From assembly GCA_043806015.1 (NCBI GenBank), contig JAZDHH010000015.1:13796-77795 (forward strand): a stretch of DNA of 64,000 nt, read 5' to 3'. Made by a program: the position numbers and the translations under genes. Numbering within the stretch: position 1 is the stretch's first letter; each line of letters begins with the position of its first letter. The stretch is from Nanobdellota archaeon. Lineage in GTDB: Archaea; Nanobdellota; Nanobdellia; Woesearchaeales; JAHIVG01. Under the pieces are notes generated by a model. That model was not told the origin of the DNA, did not search any database, and worked only from the letters and a program-made list of their open reading frames with translations. This document shows, in pieces, positions 5,046 through 47,493 of the stretch.

Positions 5046-5300
5046 ATGGACAAGCCAGAGATAAAGTTCCGCGCTGGCGCTATCAGCGCAACCGTGTGGA
5101 ACAACGAGACCAAAGCCAAGGACGGCTCCCCTGCAGCCTACAAGACGATTTCTTTGCAGCGGAGCTTCAAGGACAAGGAAGGCGTCTGGAAGAACACGGC
5201 ATCATTCCGCACCGCCGACATCCCCAAAGCGATGGTGGTGCTGAACAAGGCGTACGAGCACTTGGTGCTCGCCGCCACTGAAAATGGTGATGATGAATGA
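5046..5300 (+). CDS. small protein, possibly PC4/YdbC-like ssDNA-binding fold, translationally coupled to radA
   Basis: AGGAGG RBS at 5032-5037. Its stop overlaps the radA start (ATGA at 5297). The beta-rich sequence …KTISLQRSFKDKEGVWKNTASFRTADIP… resembles the PC4 C-terminal domain pattern. Confidence 0.4.
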   Translation: MDKPEIKFRAGAISATVWNNETKAKDGSPAAYKTISLQRSFKDKEGVWKNTASFRTADIPKAMVVLNKAYEHLVLAATENGDDE

Positions 5301-6244
5301 AAAAACAGGTTGAGCTGGAGGACCTCCCCGGCGTCGGAGCGGCAACAGCGGAGAAGCTCCGCGAGATCGGCTACACAACGGTCATGGGCGTCGCGGTCGC
5401 GTCGCCCGGCGAGCTGGTCGACGCTACTGGCGTGAGCGAATCTGTGGCCAGACGCATGATCCAAGCAGCGCGAGACAGCCTCGAGATGGGCTTCGAGAGC
5501 GCTGATTTGATCCTTGAGCGACGTCAGAAAGTCGAGAAGATCAAGACCGGCTGCTCTGCATTGGACAACCTCCTCGGCGGAGGGGTCGAGACCGCCGCCA
5601 TCACGGAAGCGTTCGGCGAGTTCGGCTCCGGCAAGACCCAGATCGGGCACCTGCTCGCCGTCAAGGCGCAGATGCTGACCCAGGAAAAGGATCCTATCGT
5701 CATCTACATCGACACCGAGAACACCTTCCGGCCGGAGCGCGTCATCGACTACGCGAAGGGCGTCGGCTTCGACCCGGAGATCGCCCTCAAGAACATCAAG
5801 GTCGCCAGGGCGTACAACTCAGACCACCAGATGCTCATCGCCGAGAAGGTCGAGGACCTCATCAAGAACAAGAACCTCAACATCAAGCTGGTGGTCGTCG
5901 ATTCCCTCACCGCGCACTTCCGCGCCGAGTTCATCGGGAGGGGGACATTGGCCGAGCGGCAGCAGAAGCTCAACAAGCACCTCCATACCCTGCTCAAGCT
6001 CGCGGACGTGTACAACCTCGCCGTCTACGTGACGAACCAGGTCATGGCCAAGCCGGACACGTTCTTCGGCGACCCGACGCAAGCGATCGGCGGCCACGTG
6101 GTGGCTCATGCATCCACCTTCCGCTTGTACCTGCGCAAGGGAAGGAAAGGGACGCGCGTCGCGAAGCTTGTTGACTCGCCGAACCTACCAGAAGGAGAGG
6201 CGAACTTCGTGGTCGAGAAGGACGGGATCAAGGACGTCAAGTAG
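5297..6244 (+). CDS. radA: DNA repair and recombination protein RadA
   Basis: N-terminal HhH domain (DLPGVGAATAEKLREIGY), Walker A GEFGSGKTQ and a RecA fold. Oligo-T terminator at 6258-6278. Confidence 0.95.
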   Translation: MKKQVELEDLPGVGAATAEKLREIGYTTVMGVAVASPGELVDATGVSESVARRMIQAARDSLEMGFESADLILERRQKVEKIKTGCSALDNLLGGGVETAAITEAFGEFGSGKTQIGHLLAVKAQMLTQEKDPIVIYIDTENTFRPERVIDYAKGVGFDPEIALKNIKVARAYNSDHQMLIAEKVEDLIKNKNLNIKLVVVDSLTAHFRAEFIGRGTLAERQQKLNKHLHTLLKLADVYNLAVYVTNQVMAKPDTFFGDPTQAIGGHVVAHASTFRLYLRKGRKGTRVAKLVDSPNLPEGEANFVVEKDGIKDVK

Positions 6245-12216: not shown

Positions 12217-12780
12217 ATGCTCAAGCGAGAGCTCCGCGTCCTCGGCATAGACGACACGCCTTTCGACAAGCATCGCGACAAGACAGCGACGCTCATCGGC
12301 ATCGTCTACCGGGGCGGCTCCTTCCCTGATGGACTGCTCTCCGCCACCGTCCGAGTCGACGGGACAGACGGGACGGCGGTCATCGCGCGGATGGTCAACC
12401 AGAGCAAGTTCAAGGAGCAGCTCCGCGCCATCCTCCTGAAAGGCATCGCTGTCGCGGGCTTCAACCTCATCGACATCAGGGCGCTCTCCCGGAGGACAAG
12501 GCTGCCGGCCATCGTGGTGATGAGACATATCCCGAAGAGCGATGAGATGGCCTCTGCCCTCAATAAGCTCGGCCTTTCATCTCAGGCCGCCATCCTAAAC
12601 CGGGTCCCGAAGATCCATCGCGCCGGGAAGCTGCTGTTCCAATGCGCGGGATGCTCGCAGCAGCATGCCGCCGAGGTCATCGCGCTCACGACCACGCACG
12701 GCAACCTGCCGGAACCGCTGCGCGTCGCACACCTCATCGCCAGCGGCATCACGCTGGGCGAGAGCAGGGGGAAGGCCTAG
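12217..12780 (+). CDS. DUF99/UPF0215 family protein
   Basis: N-terminal …LRVLGIDDTPF… is characteristic of archaeal DUF99 proteins. Confidence 0.55.
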   Translation: MLKRELRVLGIDDTPFDKHRDKTATLIGIVYRGGSFPDGLLSATVRVDGTDGTAVIARMVNQSKFKEQLRAILLKGIAVAGFNLIDIRALSRRTRLPAIVVMRHIPKSDEMASALNKLGLSSQAAILNRVPKIHRAGKLLFQCAGCSQQHAAEVIALTTTHGNLPEPLRVAHLIASGITLGESRGKA

Positions 12781-12941
12781 CGCTTCTGTGGTTCCCGAAA
12801 AATTCTTTTTCATTACGTCCTTCTAGAAAGGAATTTTTCTTTCGAAGAGCAGTTTATTCACCCCCGCAGATTCTTTTTCCGGATTTCTCTCCGACAATGA
12901 TAAGAAGAATCGATACAGCGGACTTCTTTGAGGTGATAGTG

Positions 12942-14261
12942 ATGAAATGGATCGTCATGTTCCAATTCATGTTTTTGTTATCATCAATAGCCGTAGCCAC
13001 CGACCACGTCGTCATCAGCGAAGTGTTGTTCTGGGCGAACGGCACGGACACCGGCGGCGAGTTCGTGGAGCTCTACAACCCGACCGAGCAGGACGTCGAC
13101 ATCTCGGGGTGGACGCTCGCGACCGAGAGCTCTGAGACCGATGCGACCATACCGGAGAATATCACCCTTCTCGCGCACCATTTCTACCTCATAGCCGACG
13201 CGGGCTGGGACAGCCTCAAGGACAACCCTGACTGGCCGAGCGCGGACCATGAGGAGACCATCACGCTGTCCAATGCCGATTCAGGGATCGCCCTCGTCTC
13301 GCAAAGCGATATCGTCGACGCTGCAGGTTGGGGAGACCCGAGTGGAATAGAAGAAGGCAAGTATGAGGGCGCTCCCTTCCCCGAGATGGCCAAAGCCTGG
13401 AGCCTTGAACGGAAGCCCGGCATCGAGGATCCTGAAGGGGGGAATGGCATCGACACGGACGAGAATTCCGCAGACTTCCTCCTGCGCATCCCTGAGCCGC
13501 AGGGCTCTGGAAGCGAAGAGACCCCTTTTGCGCCGGACACGGTCAACAACTTCAGCATCCAGTTCACTGTCAGCGGAAATGGCGTGGACATAATCTCCTT
13601 CAGCATTGAAGATGATGGCGCGGGGGAAGGAATCCAAGCGATGCCCTTCCCGGGCGAAAGCCGCAACCTGAGTATCAACGCGACCGTGCTCCATGCCGAG
13701 AACGTCACGGTAAGCTTCCTCAACACCACGGTCTTGCTCACCCCCCTCAACGAGACCCACTGGAGAGGGAAGGTTGCCCTCCCGTTCTTCTCTGCGCCGG
13801 GCAACCATTCTCTCTCCATATCCGCCCAGGGCGCTGAAGGGAATGACACGAACCAGACCCGGATCGATGTCCTTGAGGTCGCCGCCCTTGGCCTCGATAG
13901 CGCGGGCATGACCTTCGCAGCCTCCCCGGGTGAGAGCTTCACCGCCTGGGGAGACGATGACATCACCACCGATGACCGGCCGACTGTCCGCAACATCGGC
14001 AACGTGCCGCTCGACCTAAAGGCCAAAGGAACGAGCTTCAGCAACGGCGAGGCAGTGCTTCCGCCCGAGATATCCGGCTTCAACCTGAACATGAGCCAAA
14101 GCTTCACGCCGCTCTCCGAAAGCTGGGCAACGGTCGAGCTGGGCATGGCCTTCGGTGACATGCTGACCGCTCCCTTGAGCGTCAGGCTTGATCTTCCCGC
14201 TGACGCGGAAGGAGGCACTTACATCGGCAGCATGCTGCTCTCCGGCGTCAAGGCAGAATGA
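12942..14261 (+). CDS. secreted lamin-tail-domain (LTD) surface protein
   Basis: Signal peptide MKWIVMFQFMFLLSSIAVA. LTD signature VVISEV…GEFVELYNPT…DISGW. Multiple N-x-S/T sequons. GAGGTGA RBS before ATG 12942. Confidence 0.65.
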   Translation: MKWIVMFQFMFLLSSIAVATDHVVISEVLFWANGTDTGGEFVELYNPTEQDVDISGWTLATESSETDATIPENITLLAHHFYLIADAGWDSLKDNPDWPSADHEETITLSNADSGIALVSQSDIVDAAGWGDPSGIEEGKYEGAPFPEMAKAWSLERKPGIEDPEGGNGIDTDENSADFLLRIPEPQGSGSEETPFAPDTVNNFSIQFTVSGNGVDIISFSIEDDGAGEGIQAMPFPGESRNLSINATVLHAENVTVSFLNTTVLLTPLNETHWRGKVALPFFSAPGNHSLSISAQGAEGNDTNQTRIDVLEVAALGLDSAGMTFAASPGESFTAWGDDDITTDDRPTVRNIGNVPLDLKAKGTSFSNGEAVLPPEISGFNLNMSQSFTPLSESWATVELGMAFGDMLTAPLSVRLDLPADAEGGTYIGSMLLSGVKAE

Positions 14262-14827
14262 GACTGCTGCTCATCCTGATCTTCCTTCCTGTGGCGGACG
14301 CCCTGACCCTTGGCGTCTCGCCGCCGGAGATACGGCTCGGCGAGGTGGAGCCAGGGAAAAACGTGCCCATATCTGTCATTGCCTTCAATCCCGAGCCAGA
14401 GGCGCAAAGCTTTGTGGTCGAAGGGCTTTCAGCAAAGAAAACCGTGCGCGTCAAGGCCAGAGGCAAGGCGGTCGTTGACGGGATGATTGAAGCGCCGGAA
14501 GAGCCGGGAAACCACACGCTGCTCATCACCTTTTCCCCCAAGACCAAAGAACCTGGAATGGCGCCAGGCATCTCGGTGAAGGTCACACTGATGGTGAAAG
14601 GAAAGCCGCCGGAAGTAAGGCTACCTGGACTTCAGCCCGCAGGGCAGAGCATCACCGCCTCGGCAGTTTCTGAGGCTCCCGAAGGGACAGGAAAGCCCAA
14701 CGGCCTAGTCGGCGGAGCGATCATCGGCGGCATCGTCGGGCCTGGGCTGTTCTTCTATCGCATGGTCAGGCGACGGAAGTGGAGGAAGCCCAATCACAAG
14801 AGAAAAAGGGGAGATGATCAGGTATAA
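14258..14827 (+). CDS. secreted protein with C-terminal TM anchor and basic tail
   Basis: Signal peptide, Gly-rich C-terminal TM segment followed by RRRKWRKPNHKRKR. ATGA overlap with the LTD gene. Confidence 0.5.
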   Translation: MRLLLILIFLPVADALTLGVSPPEIRLGEVEPGKNVPISVIAFNPEPEAQSFVVEGLSAKKTVRVKARGKAVVDGMIEAPEEPGNHTLLITFSPKTKEPGMAPGISVKVTLMVKGKPPEVRLPGLQPAGQSITASAVSEAPEGTGKPNGLVGGAIIGGIVGPGLFFYRMVRRRKWRKPNHKRKRGDDQV

Positions 14828-16560
14828 TACAGTTTCCCGCTATCTTTCTGCTCGCGGTCCTTCTGGCTGCCTTCCTTGTTTATGCGCGGCCTCTTGCTGT
14901 CCGGGTCGCGGCGTAGCGTGATGCCCAGGCCGGCAAGGAAGCGATTCATGCCATCCTCCATGGAGAAGGGGCCTTCAAGAAGACCATGGGCAGCGGGCTT
15001 GCCGGAGAACACGACGAGGCGCTCGGCCATGGACTCGATGAACAGCAGGTCATGGTCGACGACCAGCGCGGAGGCGCCGCTGTGCAGCAGGCGCTCATGG
15101 ATGATCCTCGCCAAGGAGAGGCGCTGCTCGACATCGAGATAAGCGGATGGCTCGTCAAGGAGGAAGAGCTCGGCGTCCTCGGCAAGACAGCGGGCGATGG
15201 CCACACGCTGCAGCTCCCCGCCGGAGAGCTCGGAAAGCTTCTTGGTGAGCAGCTCCTTGAGGCTCAGCGACCGCATGAGCAGCACCTCGAACTTGTCGAT
15301 CGCCTTCTTCAGCACGGTCGCCACGAGCTCGTCGCCTGCCTGCAGGTACTGGGCCTTGTAGGACACCCGGACAGCGCCGGCGATGTCATGGCCCTTGACC
15401 TCTCCCGTCAGGATGCGGGCGAAGCTGGTCTTGCCGATGCCGTTCTCGCCCAGGATGCCGACTGTGGCATGGCGCTCGATCATGCCTTCCTCGGCCTCGA
15501 GCTCGAACCTGCCGAAGCTCTGCTTGAGCCTTGGCCAGGCCACGAGCGGCTGCCGCGCCTTGATCTTCATGGGCGGCTTTTCCTGGAACTTGATCTCATA
15601 CTCCCGGAAGCGCATGTTCTCCTCGCGGAGGTAGCCGGAGAGGTAGACATTGATGCCGGCCCGGCTCGGCTTGGGCAAAGAGACAATGCCATAAGCGCCC
15701 TCCTTGCCGTACATGATGTGCACCAGGTCAGCCATGAAGTCGAGGGCGATGAGGTCGTGCTCGATCACCATGACCGCGGTCTGCTCGTTGCAGAGCGAGC
15801 GGATGAAGGCGCCGAGCTTGATGCGCTGCTTGATGTCCAGGTAGCTGGTCGGCTCGTCGAAAAGGAGAAGATTCGCGTCTTTCATTGCTGTAGCGGCAAT
15901 GGCGACGCGCTGCAGCTCGCCGCCGGACACCTTGGCGATGTCCGTGTCAAGGACGTCCCTGAGCTCCAGCTTGTCCACCATCTCGGCTAGGACGCCGCGC
16001 TCATCAACTTTCTTGAGGAGATCGCCGACCGTGCCTGAAAAAAGCTTCGGGATCTGGTCTATCTGCTGCGGCTTGTAGGAGATCTTGATCTTGCCCTGCG
16101 CTATGGCCTCGAAGAAGTTCTGGGCCTCGCTGCCCTTGAAGAACGTGATGAGGTCCTGGACCGAGGTTTCCTTGTCCTGGCCCATGTTCGGCTTGAGGAC
16201 CCCGGCGAGGATCTTGATGGCCGTGGACTTGCCGATCGCGTTCTTGCCGATGACGCCGACGACCTTGCCGAATATAGGCGTGGGCAGGCTGTACAGATGG
16301 AAGCCGTTCTCGCCGTACTGATGGATGATCTTCTCGTCCAGCTCGTCCGGCAGGTTGATGATATGGATGGCGCTGAAAGGGCAGCGCTTGGGGCAGATCC
16401 CGCAGCCGGAGCACAGCGCCGCGTCTATCGCTGCTTTGCCAATCTGCTGCGTGATGCACTCCTGGCCCGCACGGTTGACCGGACAGAGCCTCATGCAGAG
16501 GAAATTGCCGCAGCCCAGGGGGTTGCATTTCTCTCTTTCCACGATGGCGATGCGTGACAT
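14818..16560 (-). CDS. abcE1: ABCE1/RLI ribosome-recycling ATPase (two ABC domains, N-terminal 4Fe-4S ferredoxin domain)
   Basis: N-terminal Cys clusters (CNPLGCGNFLC…CPVNRAG, CSGCGICPKRC), two Walker A/ABC signature regions, 580 aa. Confidence 0.95.
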   Translation of the reverse strand: MSRIAIVEREKCNPLGCGNFLCMRLCPVNRAGQECITQQIGKAAIDAALCSGCGICPKRCPFSAIHIINLPDELDEKIIHQYGENGFHLYSLPTPIFGKVVGVIGKNAIGKSTAIKILAGVLKPNMGQDKETSVQDLITFFKGSEAQNFFEAIAQGKIKISYKPQQIDQIPKLFSGTVGDLLKKVDERGVLAEMVDKLELRDVLDTDIAKVSGGELQRVAIAATAMKDANLLLFDEPTSYLDIKQRIKLGAFIRSLCNEQTAVMVIEHDLIALDFMADLVHIMYGKEGAYGIVSLPKPSRAGINVYLSGYLREENMRFREYEIKFQEKPPMKIKARQPLVAWPRLKQSFGRFELEAEEGMIERHATVGILGENGIGKTSFARILTGEVKGHDIAGAVRVSYKAQYLQAGDELVATVLKKAIDKFEVLLMRSLSLKELLTKKLSELSGGELQRVAIARCLAEDAELFLLDEPSAYLDVEQRLSLARIIHERLLHSGASALVVDHDLLFIESMAERLVVFSGKPAAHGLLEGPFSMEDGMNRFLAGLGITLRRDPDSKRPRINKEGSQKDREQKDSGKLYYT

Positions 16561-16592: not shown

Positions 16593-17108
16593 TTACGAGC
16601 CGACATCAGCCAGGAAATACAGGAAGATGTTCATGACGATGAAGAGCGAGATGATCACCCAGTTCGAGGTGAACCTGCTCCCCAGGCCGATGCCGAAGAC
16701 AAAAGCGATGGCCAACAGGCCGACGAGCTTGTTCTCAAGGCTACGGCTGTAGAAATAGAAGGCCAGCACCAGGCCTATGATGACCGCCCCATAGGTCATG
16801 AAGGCGCTGCCCATCACGGCGCGGGAGAAGAAGAAGCCGAGGCAGGTGACGATCACCACCAGGAAGCCGAACCAGTCCTGGGTGAAGGTAAACTTGCTGA
16901 ACACCTTGTAATGGATGACCCGGGAGATGCTCGGCCCCATCTCCAGCTTCGAGAAGAACCACGTGAAGAGCCAGAACAGGACGAATATGAGGATGAGGTA
17001 GGCGCCGAGGCCGAGGTGCGTCTTGCCCTGCCACCAGGAGAAGAACTTCAGGATGAAGAACAGCTGCACGAGCAGGAAGATGAACTTGCGCCAGGGAACG
17101 CCTGCCAT
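16593..17108 (-). CDS. hypothetical integral membrane protein
   Basis: Several predicted TM helices. No recognised family. Confidence 0.5.
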   Translation of the reverse strand: MAGVPWRKFIFLLVQLFFILKFFSWWQGKTHLGLGAYLILIFVLFWLFTWFFSKLEMGPSISRVIHYKVFSKFTFTQDWFGFLVVIVTCLGFFFSRAVMGSAFMTYGAVIIGLVLAFYFYSRSLENKLVGLLAIAFVFGIGLGSRFTSNWVIISLFIVMNIFLYFLADVGS

Positions 17109-17205: not shown

Positions 17206-18513
17206 TCATACATTCTCGAAATACCTTGCCCGTTCCCAGTCAGTGACCTGCATCCGGTAGTCGTCCCATTCCGCGAGCTTCGCCTGGACATACTTGTCAT
17301 GCGTTTCCTCGCCGAAAAGGTCCTTCATCAGCTTGCTTTTTTTGAAAGCCATCACCGCGTCGTACAGGGATGCGGGCAGCGTGTCGATTCCCCGCGCCTC
17401 AAGTTCTTCGGCAGTGAAGCGGTAGACATCCTCGTTCACGGGCTCCGGCGGCTCAAGGCCTTGCCGGATGCCCTCGAGGCCCGCCTTGAGCATGACCGCG
17501 AAGGCGAGATAGGGATTGCAGCTCGGGTCTGGGCACCGCAGCTCTGCCCTTGCCGCATGCGTCCTGCCGGGGAAGATGCGGGGGATGCGGATGAGCGCGG
17601 AACGGTTGACCTGGGCCCAGCAGATGTAGCATGCCGCCTCATAGCCGGGAAGGAGACGCTTATAGGAGTTGACCGTCGGGCAGAGGATGGCGATCATGTC
17701 CTTGATGAATGCCATCTGGCCGGCGATGAAGTGATAGGCCATCGGGGACAGGCGATAGCGGTCGTGCTCATCAAAAAAGAGGTTGTTTCCCCTGGAGTCA
17801 AAGATGCTCTGGTGGACATGCATCCCGGATCCATTCTGACCGAAGACCGGCTTCGGCATGAAGGAGGCATAGAGGCCGTGCTGCTGGGAAATGGACTTGA
17901 TGCAATACTTGAAGGTGATGGCGTTGTCGGCAGTGCGCAGGGCGCTGTCATATTTGAAATCGATTTCGTGCTGGCCATGCGCAACCTCATGATGTTCCGC
18001 CTCGACATCCAGGCCGAGCCCCTGCAAGGCCATCACCGCATCTTTCCGCACCGTGTTCGCAATGTCCTTGGGCGAATAGTCAAAATAGCCCCCGACATCG
18101 TTGGGAACCGGTGAATGGATGCCATCCCGCTGGAAGAGAAAGAACTCGAGCTCAGGCCCGGTGTTAAAGATGAAGCCCTGCTTTTTTGCCTCTTGGAGCA
18201 TCTTCTTTAGGATAAAGCGCGGGTCCCCGGCAAATGGGTTCCCGTCGGGAGTGAAGACGTCGCAAAAGACCCTGCCAACCCTGCGTTCTGGTGATGTCCA
18301 CGGAAGCTCCGCGAGCGTTTCCTTCTCCGGAACAAGATACATGTCGCTCTCGTGGATGCGCGCGAAACCCTCGATGGACGAGCCGTCAAACCAGACGCCA
18401 TTCTGGAAAGCGCGCTCGGCCTGCTCCACCGGGATGGACACGCTTTTTATCCTCCCGAAGAAGTCTGTGAATTGCAGTTCGACGAACTTCATGGTTTCAA
18501 TAAGAGATTGCAT
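17206..18513 (-). CDS. glnA: glutamine synthetase type I
   Basis: Full-length GS-I sequence with conserved catalytic regions, 435 aa. Confidence 0.95.
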   Translation of the reverse strand: MQSLIETMKFVELQFTDFFGRIKSVSIPVEQAERAFQNGVWFDGSSIEGFARIHESDMYLVPEKETLAELPWTSPERRVGRVFCDVFTPDGNPFAGDPRFILKKMLQEAKKQGFIFNTGPELEFFLFQRDGIHSPVPNDVGGYFDYSPKDIANTVRKDAVMALQGLGLDVEAEHHEVAHGQHEIDFKYDSALRTADNAITFKYCIKSISQQHGLYASFMPKPVFGQNGSGMHVHQSIFDSRGNNLFFDEHDRYRLSPMAYHFIAGQMAFIKDMIAILCPTVNSYKRLLPGYEAACYICWAQVNRSALIRIPRIFPGRTHAARAELRCPDPSCNPYLAFAVMLKAGLEGIRQGLEPPEPVNEDVYRFTAEELEARGIDTLPASLYDAVMAFKKSKLMKDLFGEETHDKYVQAKLAEWDDYRMQVTDWERARYFENV

Positions 18514-18610: not shown

Positions 18611-19084
18611 ATGGAAATGATGAAAAAAATTAAACAAACAGCCATCGATCCGGTCGAATTGAAAGTCCTTAATCTGCTGCTGAAAAACAGCCGCCAGTCC
18701 ATCAGGATGCTCGCGAGGAAGGCAGGCCTCTCTGCAGCGACGGTGATGAAGCGGCTGCATCGCCTCGAGCACGCCGGAGTCATCCAAGGGTATACTGCAC
18801 AGCTGGACTATGAGGCACTCGGTTACGACATCCCCGTGCTTATTGACCTACAAGTCTCCAAAGGGAAGCTCTTCCAGGTGGAGCGGAAGATAGCGACGCA
18901 TCCCAACGTGATTGCTGTCTACGACACGACCGGAGGCTTCGACGCCACGATCATCGCCATCTTTAAGACGCGACGCGCCATGGATGCCTTCCTCAAGCTG
19001 ATCCAAAGCTATGATTTCGTGGAGCGCACAGAGACGAGGGTCATCCTCAACGTGATCAAAGATGCGCGACTCACCGTCGATTAA
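18611..19084 (+). CDS. lrp: Lrp/AsnC family transcriptional regulator
   Basis: N-terminal HTH (…LKVLNLLLKNSRQSIRMLARKAGLSAATVMKRLHRLEHAGVI…) plus a RAM domain. Divergent from glnA. Confidence 0.9.
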   Translation: MEMMKKIKQTAIDPVELKVLNLLLKNSRQSIRMLARKAGLSAATVMKRLHRLEHAGVIQGYTAQLDYEALGYDIPVLIDLQVSKGKLFQVERKIATHPNVIAVYDTTGGFDATIIAIFKTRRAMDAFLKLIQSYDFVERTETRVILNVIKDARLTVD

Positions 19085-19712
19085 CAGCAGGATCCGGGAA
19101 ATCCGCGACAGGATGGCGAAAGCTGCCCATCGCTGCGGCCGCCAGCCTAGAGAGGTCAGGCTCATGGCAGCGACCAAGCACGCGGCCGTCGAGCAAATCA
19201 GGGATGCTATCGCTTCTGGCATCGGCCTCATCGGCGAGAACTATGTGCAGGACGCCGCTCAGAAGTCCCCGCAGCTTCCGCAGGTGGAGAAGCACTTCAT
19301 CGGCTCGCTGCAGAGCAACAAGGTAAAGCTTGCCGTCAAGCTCTTCGACTGCATCCAGAGCGTCGACAGCCTCAGGCTCGCGAAGGAAATCGACAAAGCC
19401 GCCCTCGAGCAGAACAAGGCCATGCCGGTGTTCATAGAGATAAACCCCGGCGAGGAGAGCAAGGGCGGCGTGCCCTTCGGCGACGCAGGAGCCCTTTACA
19501 ACCAGATGGTCAAGCTGCCCCACATCAAAATTCGGGGGTTGATGGGCATCGCCCCTTTGCACGGCGATGCCCGCGCTTTCTTCCGCAGGATGAAAAAAAC
19601 CGCGGATGAGCTGGGGCTGAAAGAGCTGAGCATGGGCATGAGCGATGACTTCGAGATCGCCATCGAGGAGGGCAGCACGATGGTGCGGGTCGGGAGAGCG
19701 CTATTCGCGTGA
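19062..19712 (+). CDS. yggS: YggS/PROSC family PLP-binding protein
   Basis: …VRLMAATKHAAVEQI…, the typical YggS TIM-barrel sequence, ~216 aa. Confidence 0.85.
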   Translation: MRDSPSINSRIREIRDRMAKAAHRCGRQPREVRLMAATKHAAVEQIRDAIASGIGLIGENYVQDAAQKSPQLPQVEKHFIGSLQSNKVKLAVKLFDCIQSVDSLRLAKEIDKAALEQNKAMPVFIEINPGEESKGGVPFGDAGALYNQMVKLPHIKIRGLMGIAPLHGDARAFFRRMKKTADELGLKELSMGMSDDFEIAIEEGSTMVRVGRALFA

Positions 19713-21020
19713 GGCTTTCTTTCTTTTCACCGGCTCTTCCGGCTTCTGCGATTTCCTTCGCGCATAGCTCACCGGGTTCCTGATCCGCTGGCAGAGGTTG
19801 TCCGGCGTGCATATGCGCAAGTCTTCGTAGAACGAGCGGCAGTTGGGCGGCAATATCGGCTTCTTCCCCTTGCTGTAGCGCATGTGCCCGGTGATGATGA
19901 CCTGGCGGAGCTGCTGCGGGTTCGCCTGGTTCCATTCCAACAGCCTCTTCTCGATCGCCTCGTGGCCCCAGCCACAGCACGAAAGGAAATTCGTGAGCGC
20001 GAAGAGGAAGCGCTTCTTGCCATCCGGCAATCCCTTGAGGCCGAGGCGCATGCAGGGAGGGAACGCTGTTTCAACTATCGCCTCCTCTGGAAGATCATAC
20101 TCCTTGCTCTCACCATGCTCTTCCGGCAGTTCGGGCATGAAATCAAAGGCTTGTATGGTGAGGCGCCGGGCCTCGCCTGGCTCGGCCTTTCGCCTCAGGA
20201 AAGCCCCTTCCACCAAATGGGGGGCTTGAGCCATTTCAGGCATGAAGGCAAGGATCTCCGCCGGCTTCACAGGAACGGACACCAGGCCGGATTTCTCGTT
20301 GAAGCTGTAGCTTGACCGATAGAGGTGACGAGATGAGATGAGGACTGTGTCGATGGCAAGGAAAGGCTCGACGTTGAGGAAGTGTACGATGTTGCCGGAC
20401 TTGTCCCTCGTCGTTGCCTGGACATCCCTCGCCGCGATGCCCGTCTTCTCAAGAACCCTCGAGAAATCGCCTTGCTCGAGCTCCAGGATCCGCTCTCCCA
20501 AGGGGAGCTGGATCATCGCCTTGAGGTAGAAGGCTATGCGGCGCGGAGCATCGGGGAAGAGCAGCTTTGTCTCGACGCTGCCGATCTTGGTGGGGAAGGC
20601 TTCGAAGGGGATGCCGATGTGGAATCCCTTGTTGCCGGAGAACTTGCAAGTGATCGCATTAATGCCATGGTGCTGCAAGGCCTTGATCACCAGGTCTGCC
20701 GCGATCTTGGAATAGTCCAGGAACTTGCAATCGATGTCGAGGACGAGATCCCAGCCGGTGCGGAGGCTTTCGATGTCGCCCCGCTGCATGCCGGGGCTGA
20801 GCTGCAGGGCGTTCTGCCAGCGCTCCTCAGAGATGTGGAACGACGTCGCGCCCTTCTTCACCAGCTCGAGGACGTCGCTCGGGTTGCGGAGCACGTCAGG
20901 CCGCTTGCCAAAGCCCTCGGCGTAGCGAACAGCCACTTCCTTGTCGGCTGCTTCCTCAACGATGGCTTCCTGCACCTCACGCTGCTTGTAATGCCTGAGC
21001 AGGACACTAGGGTGAATCAT
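19701..21020 (-). CDS. priSL: DNA primase: PriS catalytic domain fused to PriL C-terminal Fe-S domain (ORF extends to 21254; start at 21020 preferred)
   Basis: PriS-like LVLDIDCK region. The C-terminal region has the PPCM motif and four Cys typical of the PriL Fe-S domain. The ATG at 21020 shares the TCATGA site with the divergent Toprim gene. Confidence 0.7.
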   Translation of the reverse strand: MIHPSVLLRHYKQREVQEAIVEEAADKEVAVRYAEGFGKRPDVLRNPSDVLELVKKGATSFHISEERWQNALQLSPGMQRGDIESLRTGWDLVLDIDCKFLDYSKIAADLVIKALQHHGINAITCKFSGNKGFHIGIPFEAFPTKIGSVETKLLFPDAPRRIAFYLKAMIQLPLGERILELEQGDFSRVLEKTGIAARDVQATTRDKSGNIVHFLNVEPFLAIDTVLISSRHLYRSSYSFNEKSGLVSVPVKPAEILAFMPEMAQAPHLVEGAFLRRKAEPGEARRLTIQAFDFMPELPEEHGESKEYDLPEEAIVETAFPPCMRLGLKGLPDGKKRFLFALTNFLSCCGWGHEAIEKRLLEWNQANPQQLRQVIITGHMRYSKGKKPILPPNCRSFYEDLRICTPDNLCQRIRNPVSYARRKSQKPEEPVKRKKASRE

Positions 21021-21450
21021 GAAAAAGGATAAAAGCTGCGGCTTTTTATGTCTTGCCATGGATTGCCTGGAAGGCTGGCTGATGGCCTTGCGCTCGAGCA
21101 GGAAGCTCATCGTCGTCGAGGGGAAAAAGGACGCCGCTGCCCTGGCCCAGTTCGGCATCCCCGCCATCCCCCTTAACCGGAGGCCGCTCTTCTCCTTCGC
21201 CGAGGACATCGCAGCGAGGACAAAGGACTGCGTCATCCTCACCGACCTCGACACGGAAGGGAAGCGGCTCTACGCGATGCTCAAGGAGCACCTGACCAGG
21301 AACGGCGTGCGCATCGACACCCAGTTCAGGGAATGGCTCTTCCGCGAGACGACCCTGCGGCAGATCGAAGGCCTTGTCAGCTATGCGGAGAAAGAGGAAA
21401 AGAAAAAAGAAGGGAAGCTCACTCCCCGTCAAAGCTCGGATTGTCGATGA
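21019..21450 (+). CDS. small Toprim-domain protein (start uncertain; alternative Met at ~21082)
   Basis: KLIVVEGKKDAAAL…VILTDLDTEGKRL Toprim motifs. Confidence 0.6.
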   Translation: MKKDKSCGFLCLAMDCLEGWLMALRSSRKLIVVEGKKDAAALAQFGIPAIPLNRRPLFSFAEDIAARTKDCVILTDLDTEGKRLYAMLKEHLTRNGVRIDTQFREWLFRETTLRQIEGLVSYAEKEEKKKEGKLTPRQSSDCR

Positions 21451-21598
21451 TGGCCTGGTAGTACTCCACCGGCTTGACCTGCGAGATGATCGTCCGGTGG
21501 ACGATGAATCTGCTGTCCGGCGTCTTGAAGATCTTCGACTCGATGAGCGGCATCCTCTTGAGCTGCTCAAGCTTCTTTTCGCTTATGCGTGCGGTCAT
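21419..21598 (-). CDS. small hypothetical protein (59 aa, below the ORF-track cutoff)
   Basis: ATG at 21598 with a GAGGTGA RBS five nt upstream. Translation: MTARISEKKLEQLKRMPLIESKIFKTPDSRFIVHRTIISQVKPVEYYQAIIDNPSFDGE. Confidence 0.35.
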   Translation of the reverse strand: MTARISEKKLEQLKRMPLIESKIFKTPDSRFIVHRTIISQVKPVEYYQAIIDNPSFDGE

Positions 21599-21685: not shown

Positions 21686-22750
21686 TTACAGCTCGATGAT
21701 TATTGTTTTCGCTTTCAGATCAAAAGCCTTTATGAACTCGTGGGTGGCGAGCCTTTGCTTCATTTCCTCTTTAGGGAGACTATGCACCTCGTCGAGCAAG
21801 CCCTTGACCAGCTGATAATGCTCATAGATGAGCTCGCCCTTCCGCGTGTTCTCTGCGATCTCATGCTCGATCCTCGCCAGCTGCCCCTGCTGCTGCGAGA
21901 TGATGGTGAGCAGCCGGTCGCGCTCCCGGTCTCCGGGCGCCGGACGATGGTGGCGCCGCAGGGACAGCTTCTCGACCGCTTCTGAAAAAGAGGCAACGGC
22001 CGTCAGCTGCTTACCCTCGTGCTCCTTGAGCCTGAAAGGGGCGATATCGCCATCCTCGGTGATGACCGGCTCCACCGGCGAGGAAAGCATCGCCTTGAGC
22101 TCGCTGAAGCACCGCTGCGCGTCCTCGACGTTTAAGGTCTTCGCGGTCTTGTCGATCCCTGCGCGGCCGCAAAGCTCCTCAGCGAACTTGCCGCCGAGGG
22201 AAAGCCCGATCGCGAACCATTTGACGACGCTGTCAAAGTCCTGCTCCTTGAGCAGCGAAGAAAACGCTTCAAAGGAAAGCGAAGGGATGTCTTTGCAGAC
22301 TGGGAAGCGATAGGCTTCGCCCATCTTCAAGATCCTTTCCTTCCAGACCCTGGCTTCCATGATGAGCTCGATTAGGCCATTCTTGGCCACTACCAGGTTG
22401 CCGGTGCCGAAGAGCTCGAAGATAAGGGCATGAGCATCGAGCTCTATGACGATGATGCGCTCAAAGCCATGCTGCTCCACTTTCTGCACCATCGCGCCGA
22501 GCAACAGCTTCCTCAGGCGCTGGCAGAACATGGGCGGCTCCTCCTGCGCCGGCTTTTGCTGCGTCAGGAAGATCAACGTAGGGAACATGACCTTGAGCAG
22601 GCGCTTGCCCTGACCAGGCACATGGAAATCGAAGATGAACTCCTTGTCGTCCGGCTGATAGACCTTCTGCAGCCTGCCGCCTATGAGGGCCTGAAGCTCC
22701 TTCGCGATGATGCCGATTTCCATTACGGAAAGCTCTCGTTGCTTCGCCAT
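21686..22750 (-). CDS. NFACT/FbpA (Rqc2)-family protein, N-terminal half only
   Basis: MAKQRELSVMEIGIIAKELQALIGGRLQKVYQPDDKEFIFDFH… matches NFACT-N. At 354 aa it lacks the C-terminal NFACT-R region. Confidence 0.65.
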   Translation of the reverse strand: MAKQRELSVMEIGIIAKELQALIGGRLQKVYQPDDKEFIFDFHVPGQGKRLLKVMFPTLIFLTQQKPAQEEPPMFCQRLRKLLLGAMVQKVEQHGFERIIVIELDAHALIFELFGTGNLVVAKNGLIELIMEARVWKERILKMGEAYRFPVCKDIPSLSFEAFSSLLKEQDFDSVVKWFAIGLSLGGKFAEELCGRAGIDKTAKTLNVEDAQRCFSELKAMLSSPVEPVITEDGDIAPFRLKEHEGKQLTAVASFSEAVEKLSLRRHHRPAPGDRERDRLLTIISQQQGQLARIEHEIAENTRKGELIYEHYQLVKGLLDEVHSLPKEEMKQRLATHEFIKAFDLKAKTIIIEL

Positions 22751-22823: not shown

Positions 22824-23354
22824 ATGTTCATCAGGATCAAGAGGATCAACGGCCAGCACTATGCCTACAAGGTCAAGAACGCGTGGACCGAGAGCGGGGC
22901 GAGGCAGAAATCCGTCAAGTACCTCGGCAAGGCGGTCGTGCTCCCCCCTCCAGATGCAACGGCATTCGCCTCCCTGCCCAGTGATGCGGACTACCCGTGC
23001 ATCGTGTCATCCCTCATCGAATGGGAGCTGCTGTCCCGGGGTTTCCGGAAGACTGAGGGCTGCTTTGTCAAGGAAGGCGCGACCCTCGCCCTGAAGAGCC
23101 ATGTCCCCCATGCCCAGGAGAAGCCGGTGGTCCTGAAAATCAACGACGGCTATCTCTGCCAGGAGACCGTGCAACGCATCCTCTCCTTCCGGCGGAAGGA
23201 TGAGGAGGACCATGAGCAGGCAGGCATCCGCCTCGCCAACGCCTTCATCTCCGCAGGCATCAGGATCCCGCCCGAGGTCTTTGTCAAGGCGTACGACAAG
23301 GTCTCCTATTTCGAAGAGCCGCAGGTGAAGGCGGGGATTGAGGATTACCAGTAA
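22824..23354 (+). CDS. hypothetical protein; N-terminus resembles the DNA-binding beta-hairpin of IS1634-type transposases (…YAYKVKNAWTESGARQKSVKYLGK)
   Basis: Pattern similarity only. No DDE domain is present. Confidence 0.4.
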   Translation: MFIRIKRINGQHYAYKVKNAWTESGARQKSVKYLGKAVVLPPPDATAFASLPSDADYPCIVSSLIEWELLSRGFRKTEGCFVKEGATLALKSHVPHAQEKPVVLKINDGYLCQETVQRILSFRRKDEEDHEQAGIRLANAFISAGIRIPPEVFVKAYDKVSYFEEPQVKAGIEDYQ

Positions 23355-29137: not shown

Positions 29138-29740
29138 CTAGCCTTTTCGCTTGGCGATGAAATAGGTTAAAAGAAGAACCGCGGATACTGCTATTCCGCC
29201 AACGAGGAACCAGAACCAGGATCCTAGCGAAACAGAGGCTTTGGCGACTTCTCCGGCCGCATTCTGAGCCACGAATGTCGCGCTTTCGTCTGCTGCAGAC
29301 CTTAATGCCTCTGGAGCGGCGGCCATCATCGTCTTTTCCCGGGGCAACACCCGGTAGAAGTAAAGGATGCCGGCGCCAAGGAGAAGAACGCCGAGAGCAG
29401 GGAGTGTATGCCGGATGCTGACCTTCAGGCCCTCCTTCGACTCTGGAGCGATGATGATGAACTTGTTGGCGAGGGCGTAATGATTGACCTCTTTGCCCTT
29501 CTGGCTGTAATGGAACTCTTCCGCTGTCACGAGATTGGCGGCAAGGAGCTGCTGCAGATTGTAATGCACGGTCGAGAGAGGCATCTGCAGCTCATCGCCG
29601 ATCTGCGTCTCTGTGGCCTCCTTCTGGGCGAGGAGGTCGAGGATGCGGCGGCAGGTGTCGCTGGAGATCACCTGGGCGAGCTTCTTGGCCTTGTCCTCCT
29701 TCATGGAGACAAGGAGAAAGGTTTCCTTTTTCGGCTTCAT
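29138..29740 (-). CDS. membrane-anchored ArsR-family HTH regulator
   Basis: N-terminal wHTH (…CRRILDLLAQKEATETQIGDELQMPLSTVHYNLQQL…) followed by two TM helices. Confidence 0.7.
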   Translation of the reverse strand: MKPKKETFLLVSMKEDKAKKLAQVISSDTCRRILDLLAQKEATETQIGDELQMPLSTVHYNLQQLLAANLVTAEEFHYSQKGKEVNHYALANKFIIIAPESKEGLKVSIRHTLPALGVLLLGAGILYFYRVLPREKTMMAAAPEALRSAADESATFVAQNAAGEVAKASVSLGSWFWFLVGGIAVSAVLLLTYFIAKRKG

Positions 29741-33313: not shown

Positions 33314-34700
33314 TGCGCACTCCCAGACGGACGCCTCTCAGCCTGATGGAAGGGCCACCCATGGACACCGGTATGCCCTGCATCGGCTCGCCCTTGCCGC
33401 ATGTCCCGGAGAAGAGCTGGAAGTCCTTTCCCACCGCGTCGATGGAGCCGTAGAGAGACTGGGTCGTGAGCTCAATCACCGGCTGGCGCAACGGGACTGT
33501 CAGCTTGCCGCCCTCGATGAGGTAGGCTTCGCTGCCGACATATTTTTGGTTGACCCGCGTGTCATCGATGTTCCATTCCATGAAGCTCTTGATGAAGACA
33601 CCGCGCTTCACCCCTGAGATGAGCTCCTCCTGGCCCTGATCCCGGGGAAGGATGAAGGTGTTGGACATTCGGGGGATAGGCTCCCGCTCGAAGCTCGCGG
33701 CCCGCGCAGAGCCGTTGCTCTGCACCTTGAGGTGCGCGGCCGTCTCCCGGCTGTGGAGCAGCTCGGTGATGATCCCTTCCTTCACCAGAAACTTCCTCCG
33801 CGCCTTGACCCCTTCGTCGTCGAAATGATAAAAGCCCGCTGAATGCTCAATGGTCGGGTCATCGACAAGGGTGATGCAAGGGGCGGCGATGCGGCTGCCG
33901 ATGACCTTCGGCGTGATGAAGGATTCGCCTGCCTGGGCTCCCTCGCGGCCGAAGATGCGGTCAGCCTCGTAGGGATGCCCGCCTGATTCGTGGACCAGGA
34001 TGCCGGTGACCTCCGGAGCGGCCACGACGTCCAGGATGCCTTTCGGCGAGGCTTCCGCCTTCGCCACGTTCCGCTGCATCGCGGCGATGTCTTCGCTGAG
34101 CATGCTTTCCATGCGCCAGGCCTTGACCTCTTTCCGGCCGCCGACAGAGCCTTTCTGCCAGAAGCGCTGCATGCTGCCATCGCCCAAGGTCCCCATGGCG
34201 AAGAGGCTGATGGCGGGGTAGGTCGACTCGATCTCGGTGCCTTCGGACGTCGCCACCCGCTTAAGAGTCTCTGAGGATGACAATGAGAAAAAACGGGTGG
34301 AGAGCGGCTTCGCTATCCGGTCAAGGTCGGTGAGGTAAGCCAGCGTCTCCTCTGGTGTCATCCCTTCTGCAGGGATCCTCACTTTAGCGTTGCGCTTCTT
34401 CGCAACCGCAAGCCTGGACTGCGACGGCGTCACGAGGTTGGATGCCTTGGCAGCCTTCGCCGCCCGCGCCATGATGCGGAAGAGGGATGCTTTCGTGAGC
34501 GTGTCGGTGGAGCAGAAGCAGAGCTTCCCTGCGACCATCATCCGGATGCCGACGCCTTCGCGCTCGGTGCATGCGCTGATCTCGGGGATGCTGTTCTTGA
34601 GGAGGAACCCTTGCGAGACCGCCTTCTCGTAGCGTGCCTCGGTATAGCTTGAGCCGAGCCTTTCGCCTTCTTTCAGGATAGAGGTGATAACCTTGTTCAT
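33306..34700 (-). CDS. tldD: TldD family metalloprotease
   Basis: HESGGHPYE metal-binding region, 464 aa. Confidence 0.85.
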   Translation of the reverse strand: MNKVITSILKEGERLGSSYTEARYEKAVSQGFLLKNSIPEISACTEREGVGIRMMVAGKLCFCSTDTLTKASLFRIMARAAKAAKASNLVTPSQSRLAVAKKRNAKVRIPAEGMTPEETLAYLTDLDRIAKPLSTRFFSLSSSETLKRVATSEGTEIESTYPAISLFAMGTLGDGSMQRFWQKGSVGGRKEVKAWRMESMLSEDIAAMQRNVAKAEASPKGILDVVAAPEVTGILVHESGGHPYEADRIFGREGAQAGESFITPKVIGSRIAAPCITLVDDPTIEHSAGFYHFDDEGVKARRKFLVKEGIITELLHSRETAAHLKVQSNGSARAASFEREPIPRMSNTFILPRDQGQEELISGVKRGVFIKSFMEWNIDDTRVNQKYVGSEAYLIEGGKLTVPLRQPVIELTTQSLYGSIDAVGKDFQLFSGTCGKGEPMQGIPVSMGGPSIRLRGVRLGVRNG

Positions 34701-35644
34701 CGGAATACGCTGAGATCTTCAACGAGCGCCTGCGCGACCGCCACCTTGAGGTCCTGCGGATGCAGGCCTTTGGAGAGGTAAAGCGTCTTGAGTTCATCGT
34801 GAGATGCTATAGTGATGTCGCCGCCGTGCTTCGCAGGCCGCCGGACCTCCAGCTTGCCCATCCGCGGCAGGATGAGGAGCTGAGCAATCGCGAAGATCGG
34901 GTTGTCTTCGGTCAGGGCTTCTGGACAGAAAGCCTTTGCCACTTTCTTCTGGATGGCCTCGGGAGAATCCGCAAGGGCGATATGCGATTCCGGCACAGAA
35001 GAGCTCATCTTGCCGCCTTTCTGCAAGGAGGGGATGAGGGGGCTGTGCACGCAGACCGGGGCCCGATAGTTCAAGAGGGGGAGCAGCTCGCGGGCGAGCA
35101 TGTGGATCTTGCGCTGCTCGATGCCTGCCTGGGCGATCTCCACGCCGAGCGCCTTGATGTCCTCGACCTGCATGAAAGGATAGATGATCTGGGATACCTT
35201 GGCGTGCTCGATGTCGCGGGCAATCTCCTGCATGCTCCGGAGGGCGCGCTGCAGCGTCGTGTCCAGCGACATCTTCAGCAGATCATCAAAATAGTTGAGG
35301 TTGCGCTGGAAGCTCGAGCCTAGGACGAACTCGGCATCGTCCAGCCCTGCCTTCTTGAAGGTGTCCTGCCACACCTTGGCCTGGTCGTGGATGAAGTCCC
35401 ATTCGCCCTTCTGGTTGAGATATGTATGCCAGTCTGCGAACAGCACTTTCACCCTGCAGCCGGCTTTCATCAGGTCCATAAGCTTGGTGATGGTGACGAG
35501 ATGGCCGAGATGCACCGGCCCTGAGGTCTCATAGCCGCAGTAGGTCACGGGATGCTTCTTGCGGTCGAAGAGCTCGATGAGCTCTTTCTCTTCAACAATT
35601 TCAACGGTGTTACGCTTGATGAGTTCGAGGCTTGCGGAATCCAT
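34697..35644 (-). CDS. tyrS: tyrosine--tRNA ligase (archaeal type)
   Basis: HLGH (PVHLGHL) and KMSSS-like motifs, 315 aa. TATA box TTTATATA at 35672-35679 about 28 nt upstream. Confidence 0.9.
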   Translation of the reverse strand: MDSASLELIKRNTVEIVEEKELIELFDRKKHPVTYCGYETSGPVHLGHLVTITKLMDLMKAGCRVKVLFADWHTYLNQKGEWDFIHDQAKVWQDTFKKAGLDDAEFVLGSSFQRNLNYFDDLLKMSLDTTLQRALRSMQEIARDIEHAKVSQIIYPFMQVEDIKALGVEIAQAGIEQRKIHMLARELLPLLNYRAPVCVHSPLIPSLQKGGKMSSSVPESHIALADSPEAIQKKVAKAFCPEALTEDNPIFAIAQLLILPRMGKLEVRRPAKHGGDITIASHDELKTLYLSKGLHPQDLKVAVAQALVEDLSVFR

Positions 35645-43521: not shown

Positions 43522-44217
43522 TTATGGGGCGGGGAAGGCGTAGAACCGGTCTCCGAGCACGAAGCATTGGCGGAGCCGTGCCTTGCGGAGCAGCGGGCCG
43601 AGCCTGCTGCCTTGCACATCACTGCCTTCCACGAGCGGATGGAAGGAAGGCAGCACGAGCAGCTTCTTCCTCTTCCATGTCGCCCAGACAAAGCATTTGA
43701 ACCGCTCTTCCCTGACGCCGGAGCGGACGGTGAAAGCGGGATGCTCATGACCGATGAACAGCACTTTGGCGCTTCTCACGATCAATTCCCTGTCGCCATG
43801 GAGAAAGGCATACGCACCCACCGCATGGCTTTTCACCAGGGATACCCCCCGTTTTGCGAGGATCGGCCTGAGCGCCGTGTCATGGTTCCCTTCGACCACG
43901 ATGACCTTCCGGCCCTGCTGCAACAGGTCGAGAAGCCGCAAGGTGTCCCTCCATTCCTGCTCATTGATCCCGCCAAAGTCATGCTTGACATCTCCCAGGA
44001 TGACGACGGTCTCCGGTCTTAACTGCGAGAGCAAGGAGGCCATCGTCGCCCTGATCTGCTGGAACTGCGTCTTGGGCACCAGGATGCCTTTCTGTAAAAG
44101 CGCTTGCTCATAGCCGAGGTGCAGGTCTGCTATGACGAGCGTCCGCCCCCTACGCAGGAAGGCAGCGGGGCCACAGAGCAGGATGTCCTCGGTGAGGGCA
44201 TAGCGGGGGAGCGCCAT
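43522..44217 (-). CDS. calcineurin-like metallophosphoesterase
   Basis: D-x-H…GD…GNHD motifs (IADLHLG, ILGDVKHD, EGNHD). Confidence 0.8.
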   Translation of the reverse strand: MALPRYALTEDILLCGPAAFLRRGRTLVIADLHLGYEQALLQKGILVPKTQFQQIRATMASLLSQLRPETVVILGDVKHDFGGINEQEWRDTLRLLDLLQQGRKVIVVEGNHDTALRPILAKRGVSLVKSHAVGAYAFLHGDRELIVRSAKVLFIGHEHPAFTVRSGVREERFKCFVWATWKRKKLLVLPSFHPLVEGSDVQGSRLGPLLRKARLRQCFVLGDRFYAFPAP

Positions 44218-47392: not shown

Positions 47393-47493
47393 AGGCCCCG
47401 CCTCCGTAGCATAGTAGCCATTGCGGCGGACTTGTATATTGCCGGAGAAATCCGCAGGTCGAGGGTGCAACTCCCTCCGGAGGCTCTTTGCCC

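Follow-up and report, generated by a model that had tools for sequence, protein, structure and literature searches.

The window analysed here, a 64-kb stretch of DNA, carries on its minus strand a primase gene, with its ATG at 21020-21018 and its stop codon at 19701-19703, and, divergently on the plus strand, a gene for a small protein whose Toprim domain had been correctly recognised by an earlier first-pass annotation (Table 1). With a probability of roughly 0.85, we read this locus as a pair of ordinary genes on the chromosome of a DPANN archaeon of the Woesearchaeota type (GTDB Nanoarchaeota), namely a replicative primase and a stand-alone Toprim protein, diverging from a 37-bp promoter.

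The primase is 100% identical to an NCBI entry named 'hypothetical protein V1735_05210 [Nanoarchaeota archaeon]'. Its strand and start codon were as the first-pass annotation had given them, while the length of 440 aa proposed there was found to be 439 aa. Because the N-terminus MIHxS..LLxHYK is kept across the aligned homologues (n = 25), we placed the start at ATG 21020. Two other candidates, GTG 21254 and ATG 21236, were rejected, as they have neither a homologous N-terminus nor a correctly placed TATA-like box. The 517-aa ORF with a GTG start (19701-21254) is a mechanical listing that reads through upstream and has no counterpart among the homologues.

Table 1. Coordinates of the genes, domains and predicted promoter elements at the locus (positions of the window)
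Feature	Position	Strand	Remarks
Fused monomeric archaeo-eukaryotic primase gene	19701..21020	-	439 aa + stop
PriL-type C-terminal (putative Fe-S) domain	19740..20090	-	about aa 311-427
PriS-like AEP catalytic domain	20226..21020	-	about aa 1-265
Spurious N-terminal extension of the Toprim ORF, MKKDKSCGFLCLA	21019..21057	+	13 codons, in frame, no counterpart in any homologue
Intergenic bidirectional promoter (predicted)	21021..21057	both	37 bp; 8 nt purine-rich (BRE-like) + 8-nt TATA-like + 21 nt + ATG
TATA-like box GATAAAAG	21028..21035	+	-30..-23 of Toprim ATG 21058; preceded by GAAAAAG (BRE-like)
TATA-like box CATAAAAA	21043..21050	-	-30..-23 of primase ATG
Small stand-alone Toprim protein gene	21058..21450	+	130 aa; NCBI model P0121 has the same start

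Domains and relatives of the fused primase

The N-terminal half of the primase has the motifs of the AEP family and, in its AF2 model (pLDDT 85.8), the AEP fold. In the 25 homologues, D95 and D97 (the DxD of LVLDID), the segment SGNKGFH with H134, and D224 (ID) are invariant, in agreement with AEP motifs I (hhhDhD/E), II (sxH) and III (hD/E), and so are R231 and H232. Foldseek searches with the model returned Prim-PolC, the LigD polymerase domain, human Pri1 and Pyrococcus PriS (E 6e-7 to 1e-4, probability 1.00). The first-pass annotation had proposed alignments to PF01896 and PF04104; the former matched aa 97-252 with 28.8 bits, above the cut-off of 26.8. Besides Cys98, no conserved Cys/His zinc motif could be read from the alignment in the N-terminal domain.

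The C-terminal domain is predicted to be of the PriL type, with a putative [4Fe-4S] cluster. Two cysteines, Cys323 (FPPC) and Cys394 (PPNC), are invariant, and two more, Cys404 and Cys410, are found in at least 90% of the aligned sequences; in Pyrococcus abyssi PriL (9f26_B), the four residues correspond to the PPC motif and the C-terminal Cys motifs. The PF04104 match, over profile positions 94-218 of 266, reached 20.0 bits, just under the gathering score of 22.4. The NCBIfam PriL models gave E values of 2e-7 to 6e-5, far under their full-length equivalog cut-offs, which is to be expected where a single domain is matched. The domain has the helical fold of the PriL C-terminal domain in the model, and a Foldseek search with this domain alone gave no significant match (E about 0.7). 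Both domains are well predicted and are separated by a low-confidence segment at aa 299-306. A basic tail follows the PriL-type domain. The PPCM/four-Cys domain described by the first-pass annotation is present as a predicted Fe-S domain, and the fusion of PriS and PriL(CTD) on one chain is supported; the sequence contains LVLDID within WDLVLDIDC, and FPPCM with further Cys residues.

This arrangement had been called rare. We found, in contrast, that it is the standard primase in a large part of DPANN, with more than 3,800 homologues (PMC7414124, PMC3914693, PMC10250227). The best 120 of these have 422-486 aa and cover 92-100% of the query, and their named sources are mostly Woesearchaeota/Nanoarchaeota; at least 551 loci with the fused primase occur in GTDB species-representative genomes. 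The PriS-PriL fusion was first seen in N. equitans and then in other nanosized archaea (PMC3914693), and is considered a synapomorphy of Undinarchaeota and DPANN Cluster 2 (PMC7414124). In these lineages the fused family is described as the only cellular primase, without separate priS or priL (PMC7414124, PMC10250227). Within the 64-kb window, neither a second primase-like ORF nor a separate priL was found. By its sequence, the window primase thus belongs to a known family with a characterised representative, NEQ395 of N. equitans, a monomeric enzyme with a [4Fe-4S] cluster that makes RNA primers of ~9 nt (PMC10250227).

NEQ395 and the window primase share the N-terminal AEP domain (DxD / sxH / hD), the linker and the C-terminal PriL-type four-Cys domain, and both are single chains without the PriL N-terminal domain; the flexible linker of NEQ395 corresponds to the low-confidence aa 299-306. 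They differ in length (393 aa for NEQ395 versus 439 aa) and in host, since the window primase, known here from sequence and model, comes from a mesophile-type, Woesearchaeota-like MAG with 58% GC. With the heterodimeric enzymes (Pyrococcus 1G71/9F26, human 4RR2), the window primase has in common the catalytic fold and motifs of PriS and, on the PriL side, the signature PPC...C...C...C together with the fold of the Fe-S domain. Unlike them, it carries both functions on one polypeptide and has no PriL N-terminal domain, as deduced from the restricted span of the PF04104 match. By analogy with NEQ395, the PriS domain would supply a two-metal active site, the tethered Fe-S domain would hold the initiating nucleotide and the template, and short RNA primers would be made without a separate large subunit.

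The Toprim protein and its start

The Toprim gene had been proposed to begin at ATG 21019, so that the two start codons would overlap and each promoter would lie inside the other gene. The palindrome TCATGA is indeed present at 21017-22, with CAT (21018-20) and ATG (21019-21) overlapping within it, and the reading frame from ATG 21019 is open up to 21058. However, this ATG is merely the first in-frame one of a stop-to-stop ORF, and the homologous N-terminus is the downstream Met at 21058. All 13 aligned homologues, whose N-termini are gene-caller predictions, begin at this Met and have 117-130 aa, one further, unaligned match having 167 aa; another 120 homologues mostly have 112-135 aa. Moreover, the N-terminus of the Toprim profile lies within 4 residues of Met 21058, and PDB 1T6T (118 aa), which aligns from its residue 6, begins at this position as well. 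We also compared the locus with that of relatives, by way of P0002 and P0003. In L003, the closest of them whose gap is likewise 37 nt, the position homologous to ATG 21019 reads ATA, and in another (L001) the gap is 64 nt and the region is out of register with the window. In adjacent primase-Toprim pairs of other species (n = 29), the gap is 42-124 nt and the genes never overlap. Finally, no TATA-like box is found at -33..-23 of 21019, where the A/T content reaches 6/8 at -33 only and 4-5/8 at -32..-28. An overlap of the start codons is therefore very improbable, and the Toprim gene very probably starts at 21058, 39 bases downstream of 21019, which leaves a 37-bp intergenic promoter between two start codons that do not overlap. 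ATG 21082 was also considered and rejected, since this start would cut the conserved helix LxxWxxxLkes and has neither a homologous N-terminus nor a correctly placed TATA-like box.

The suggestion that the Toprim protein is a DnaG-like partner of the primase was not supported. A primase of the DnaG type, or a subunit resembling DnaG and priming together with the fused primase, would be in line with the intact metal site, in which Glu E21 and the DxD D63/D65 (E34 and D76/D78 when counted from 21019) are invariant, with weak profile matches to bacterial DnaG Toprim cores (E 0.013-0.1), and with the conserved divergent pairing described below. Nevertheless, DnaG proteins have 320-400+ aa with additional domains and share with the window protein the Toprim core alone, whereas the latter consists, in its 130 aa, of this core and short helices. 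Toprim was the only DnaG domain detected in it; the zinc-binding, RNA-polymerase-flank and helicase-binding regions are missing. Its best matches are small stand-alone proteins (1T6T, E 1.6e-22, profile positions 5-109; also 2i5r and 2fcj) and the RNase M5 N-domain. Archaeal DnaG is described as an exosome subunit (PMC4227792), which also counts against DnaG. We thus give little credence to a DnaG-type protein, while the idea of some functional link to the primase gains support from the pairing.

Sequence comparison places the protein, which is related to the RNase M5 N-domain and is not a DnaG, with the small stand-alone Toprim proteins of the 1T6T / PRK04017 type. Similarity to the small Toprim proteins (1T6T from Aquifex aeolicus; PRK04017, an archaeal 'hypothetical protein' of NCBIfam; 2I5R; 2FCJ) includes end-to-end similarity with 1T6T, a size of ~120 aa, and the Glu and DxD residues. 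The PRK04017 NCBIfam models scored 38-52 bits against equivalog cut-offs of 120-193, and we therefore consider the protein a member of the broad family and not an equivalog. The RNase M5 model TIGR00334 scored 18.5 bits (cut-off 110.65), and the RNase M5 structures 6tg6/6tpq were matched in the N-domain region only; the C-terminal domain with which RNase M5 binds 5S rRNA and uL18 is missing from the window protein. The protein has an intact Glu/DxD metal site and most probably acts as a nuclease or phosphotransfer enzyme that depends on Mg2+. We found nothing on this small Toprim protein in the searchable literature.

The intergenic promoter

Of the candidate starts, 21020 and 21058 have a TATA-like box; 21019, 21082, 21236 and 21254 have none. 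Across the window, 16-18 of the 66 ORFs have an 8-mer with at least 7/8 A/T starting at -31..-29, versus a background of 1.4% per position, and we infer that a box at -30..-23 is the usual leaderless-promoter geometry of this genome. The Toprim box resembles the other promoters of the window (aaaG[GC]TTTWTAWA) but is weaker, with 6/8 A/T. The 8+8+21 layout was also found in L003.

Both genes would be transcribed divergently as leaderless mRNAs from opposed BRE/TATA-like boxes. Each TATA-like box lies 8-15 nt upstream of the ATG of the opposite gene, so that the two pre-initiation complexes would share the same ~60 bp, and interference between the two promoters is predicted.

Conservation and meaning of the divergent pair

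Of 75 eligible species loci, 42 have the Toprim gene near the primase, in every case upstream of it and divergent; in the other 33, no Toprim gene lies within 3 kb. Taking the Toprim gene as the starting point, the primase lies divergently upstream in 48 of 61 eligible metagenome loci. The protein search with the Toprim profile returned close Woesearchaeota-type relatives only. The pair is thus kept in about 56-79% of the sampled loci, versus less than 3% for other neighbours: yggS, NFACT, glnA and lrp were kept in at most 2 of 80. The divergent pair is strongly conserved while its other neighbours are not, a point that appears to be new; we found no report of the pairing in the searchable literature.

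Could this conservation, or the primase itself, have a more trivial origin? Archaeal plasmids are known to carry PriS-PriL-like fusions and monomeric AEPs (PMC3973330, PMC10250227), and the fused primase, instead of being a cellular primase, might be part of a plasmid or virus that has integrated, comparable to PolpTN2 or the pRN1 Rep protein. PolpTN2, from the Thermococcus nautilus plasmid pTN2, is likewise a fusion of a PriS domain with a PriL-CTD-like domain (PMC3973330); unlike the window primase it is plasmid-borne, and it is a fusion of independent origin whose sequence shows no similarity to nanosized archaeal primases (PMC3914693). The window primase, in contrast, has housekeeping flanks in a chromosomal context (RPA, RadA, ABCE1, GlnA, GlmS, PAN, GatD/E and MCM occur in the window) with uniform base composition, and its orthologues, in hundreds of species-representative genomes, belong to the family that the literature treats as the only cellular primase in these lineages. 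A mobile-element origin was rejected on genomic context. More weight must be given to an adjacency that is inherited gene order without functional meaning, the Toprim protein acting in an unrelated process such as RNase M5-like rRNA processing. The sampled loci all come from one broad lineage (Woesearchaeota/Nanoarchaeia), some Toprim members carry the JGI label 'ribonuclease M5', and the Toprim gene is absent near the primase in the 33 loci mentioned above, so that we hold this to be a serious possibility, somewhat short of even odds. Nevertheless, within one set of loci the Toprim gene was kept in 42 and the other neighbours in at most 2, the pairing also holds from the Toprim side, and the primases at the compared loci are only 46-58% identical to that of the window.

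Tentatively, we suggest that the Toprim and monomeric primase genes form a conserved divergent two-gene module in Woesearchaeota-type DPANN, with the Toprim protein perhaps serving the primase as its dedicated partner. If so, it could act as a metal-dependent nuclease in the processing or removal of RNA primers, or as an accessory factor that makes up for functions missing along with the PriL N-terminal domain or PriX, and expression of both genes would be coupled, or made to alternate, by the ultra-compact bidirectional promoter.

The PriS-PriL fusion has already been published as characteristic of a large clade within DPANN and adds nothing new, and the claimed overlap of start codons vanishes on comparison with homologues. 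The very clear, presumably leaderless TATA geometry (-30..-23) is usable for correcting gene starts in GC-rich DPANN MAGs. Moreover, a primase-Toprim divergent pair conserved far above background synteny is a testable lead to function for the 1T6T-like small Toprim family, which has a solved structure and is uncharacterised, possibly in primer processing in organisms with a minimal replisome.

Domains and setting of the fused primase

The primase ORF reads on the minus strand from ATG 21020-21018 to a stop codon at 19703-19701; the first-pass annotation had placed it correctly from this ATG, but it encodes 439 aa, not 440. A 517-aa form from GTG 21254, which appeared in a mechanical listing, was rejected as upstream read-through, since the Met at 21020 is the first residue in 25/25 aligned homologues and opens a conserved N-terminus (MIxLS..LxHYKR).

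The earlier assignment of a PriS region and a PriL Fe-S domain to one chain was right, as indicated by profiles, PDB alignment, conserved residues and fold. In Pfam, PriS (PF01896) matched aa 97-252 at 28.8 bits, above the 26.8 cut-off, and PriL (PF04104) matched aa 304-414 (profile positions 94-218 of 266) at 20.0 bits, slightly under the 22.4 cut-off; five NCBIfam PriL models matched aa 293-436 (E 2e-7 to 6e-5). The sole significant PDB sequence match, P. abyssi PriL (9f26_B, E 3.8e-6), aligned exactly at FPPC and at PPNC...C...C. Across the 25-sequence alignment, the catalytic residues D95/D97 (DxD), H134 (SGNKGFH), D224 and R231/H232 were invariant, as were C323 and C394, and C404 and C410 were conserved in at least 90% of sequences. 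Moreover, the AF2 model (mean pLDDT 85.8, with a low-confidence stretch between the domains at aa 299-306) matched the AEP catalytic domains of Prim-PolC, LigD-pol, human Pri1 and Pyrococcus PriS.

The fusion had also been called a rare arrangement, which does not hold. An NCBI protein of a Nanoarchaeota MAG has the identical sequence (100%), and a search with the primase gave >3,800 matching proteins, the best 120 of which are 422-486 aa long at 92-100% query coverage, their named sources being mostly Woesearchaeota/Nanoarchaeota MAGs. A scan with one genome per species gave at least 551 confirmed primase loci. Raymann et al. 2014 described the fusion in other nanosized archaea as well as in Nanoarchaeum equitans, for which they credit Iyer et al. 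2005 (PMC3914693); Dombrowski et al. are also cited on it. The N. equitans enzyme NEQ395, purified by Schneider et al. 2023, is monomeric, carries a [4Fe-4S] cluster and makes RNA primers of ~9 nt, its preferred template triplet having a central T (PMC10250227). The fused primase is a known kind of gene, in a lineage where it is expected.

The window, with genes for RPA, RadA, ABCE1, GlnA, Lrp, YggS, NFACT, GlmS, PAN, TldD/PmbA, GatD/E and MCM, is ordinary archaeal chromosome. This gene content and a base composition that is even throughout rule out a primase of mobile-element origin. A search of the 64 kb turned up no further ORF resembling a primase or PriL, which has little bearing on the remaining genome.

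The primase 3' end overlaps that of a convergent yggS-like gene by 12 nt (19701-19712), an overlap that recurs in the two closest relatives over 38-39 nt (L001, 7273-7311; L003, 5043-5080). Elsewhere, the S-adenosylmethionine synthetase gene may have been horizontally acquired, the tRNA-Thr(TGT) may contain an intron or other insertion, and the Lamin-tail-domain (LTD) proteins are probably surface or secreted and DPANN-typical.

Features of the window
Feature	Position	Strand	Remark
RPA-like OB-fold protein	3446-4441	+	replication/recombination
RadA	5297-6244	+	replication/recombination
MCM	59198-61261	+	replication/recombination; full-length, archaeal winged-helix domain
A/T-box gene	14818-16560	-	8/8 box at -30..-23
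A/T-box gene	16593-17108	-	8/8 box at -30..-23
A/T-box gene	29138-29740	-	8/8 box at -30..-23
A/T-box gene	34697-35644	-	8/8 box at -30..-23
A/T-box gene	43522-44217	-	8/8 box at -30..-23
A/T-box gene	48593-49537	-	8/8 box at -30..-23
A/T-box gene	46718-47308	+	8/8 box at -30..-23
LTD protein	12642-14261	+	also L003 8566-9891
glnA	17206-18513		GGAGG-like leader
yggS-like gene	19062-19712		Ala_racemase_N
59-aa ORF	21419-21598	-	no Pfam match
NFACT-N	21686-22750	-	divergent pair with 176-aa protein
176-aa protein	22824-23354	+	no Pfam match
S-adenosylmethionine synthetase	42328-43479	-	bacterial/eukaryotic-type MetK domains PF00438, PF02772, PF02773, not archaeal-type MAT
tRNA-Thr(TGT)	47400-47486	+	87 nt vs 71-position model

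Identity and start of the Toprim protein

The divergent gene does encode a Toprim domain, as first annotated (PF01751, 27.6 bits), and its product is a small Toprim protein of the stand-alone kind. It was matched by the PRK04017 models (archaeal 'hypothetical protein') at 38-52 bits, under their equivalog cut-offs, and the RNase M5 model matched weakly. In a family profile search, 1T6T, a 118-aa Aquifex structural-genomics protein, was matched end to end (E 1.6e-22), followed by further small proteins of this kind and by the N-domain of RNase M5 (E ~1e-3). DnaG Toprim cores matched only marginally (E 0.013-0.1); the protein is not a DnaG, contrary to the DnaG-like identity suggested earlier. 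The Glu/DxD site is intact, E34, D76 and D78 (long-ORF numbering) being invariant among the aligned homologues.

The plus-strand ORF ends at 21450 and its first in-frame ATG, 21019-21021, overlaps the primase start inside the palindrome TCATGA (21017-21022). This overlap, on which the first-pass annotation had based its back-to-back promoters, is real as sequence, but the predicted Toprim start is the ATG at 21058, which encodes Met14 in the long ORF, on five lines of evidence. The NCBI model is 130 aa long; all 13 aligned homologues (117-130 aa) begin at the Met14 column, leaving the extension MKKDKSCGFLCLA without an aligned counterpart, and most of another 120 homologues measure 112-135 aa; residue 6 of 1T6T and the N-terminus of the profile both fall at 21058; in L003 the intergenic distance is likewise 37 nt and the overlapped position reads ATA, the gap in L001 being 64 nt; and promoter geometry fits only 21058.

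The C-terminal tail KEEKKKEGKLTPRQSSDCR is longer than those of the homologues. The last 32 nt of the gene are overlapped convergently by a 59-aa ORF lying downstream of NFACT; L001 has a called gene of 54 aa in the corresponding position, with which this ORF shares 77% identity.

Predicted promoters in the 37-bp spacer

Archaeal BRE/TATA promoters of leaderless mRNAs are recognised by an A/T box ~30 nt before the ATG. A/T-rich 8-mers are scarce in this 58% GC window (1.4% of positions), yet 16-18 of 66 ORFs have one starting at -31..-29 from the ATG, typical upstream boxes reading aaaG[GC]TTTATAAA. At -30..-23, the box is CATAAAAA (21050-21043) for the primase ATG and GATAAAAG (21028-21035, following GAAAAAG) for the Toprim ATG at 21058; the box scan found nothing comparable upstream of the candidate starts 21019, 21082, 21236 and 21254. 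The spacer is therefore symmetric, each strand carrying 8 nt BRE-like, 8 nt TATA-like and then 21 nt to the ATG, a layout shared by L003.

With 37 nt between the two genes, the window and L003 show the closest spacing of all adjacent pairs examined (the 29 other pairs range from 42 to 124 nt), and the predicted bidirectional leaderless promoter is unusually compact. TBP/TFB bound at one box would occupy DNA needed by RNA polymerase for the opposite promoter, so that primase and Toprim initiation would alternate rather than occur simultaneously.

Many window genes have an 8/8 A/T box (TTTATAAA, TTTTTAAA or TATATAAA, mostly after aaaG[GC]) at exactly -30..-23, a pattern implying that most window transcripts would be leaderless; a few, such as glnA, have a GGAGG-like leader instead. 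The 73-bp spacer between NFACT-N and the 176-aa protein likewise has A/T boxes on both strands, with CTTTTTAA at -32..-25 of 22824.

Conservation of the primase-Toprim pair

Among 80 species-representative loci (primases of 46-58% identity), 42 have a Toprim homologue upstream of the primase and divergent from it; in none is it on the same strand or downstream. Seventy-five had the required ≥500 nt of upstream sequence (42/75), and no Toprim gene was found within 3 kb in the other 33; the two genes are directly adjacent in 29 (median gap 73 nt). From the Toprim side, 61 metagenome loci extended far enough upstream, and in 48 of them the primase lay upstream in divergent orientation. Of the other neighbours (yggS, NFACT, glnA, lrp and the 176-aa ORF), none recurs in more than 2 of the 80. 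Thus, within the one broad lineage from which all loci were sampled, the pair is kept far more often than background synteny would predict, and this suggests that the genes are co-regulated or functionally linked.

No mention of this pairing was found in the searchable literature, and the pairing alone adds to prior knowledge. The interest of the locus is low except for this conserved primase-Toprim module and its compact, putatively bidirectional leaderless 37-bp promoter.
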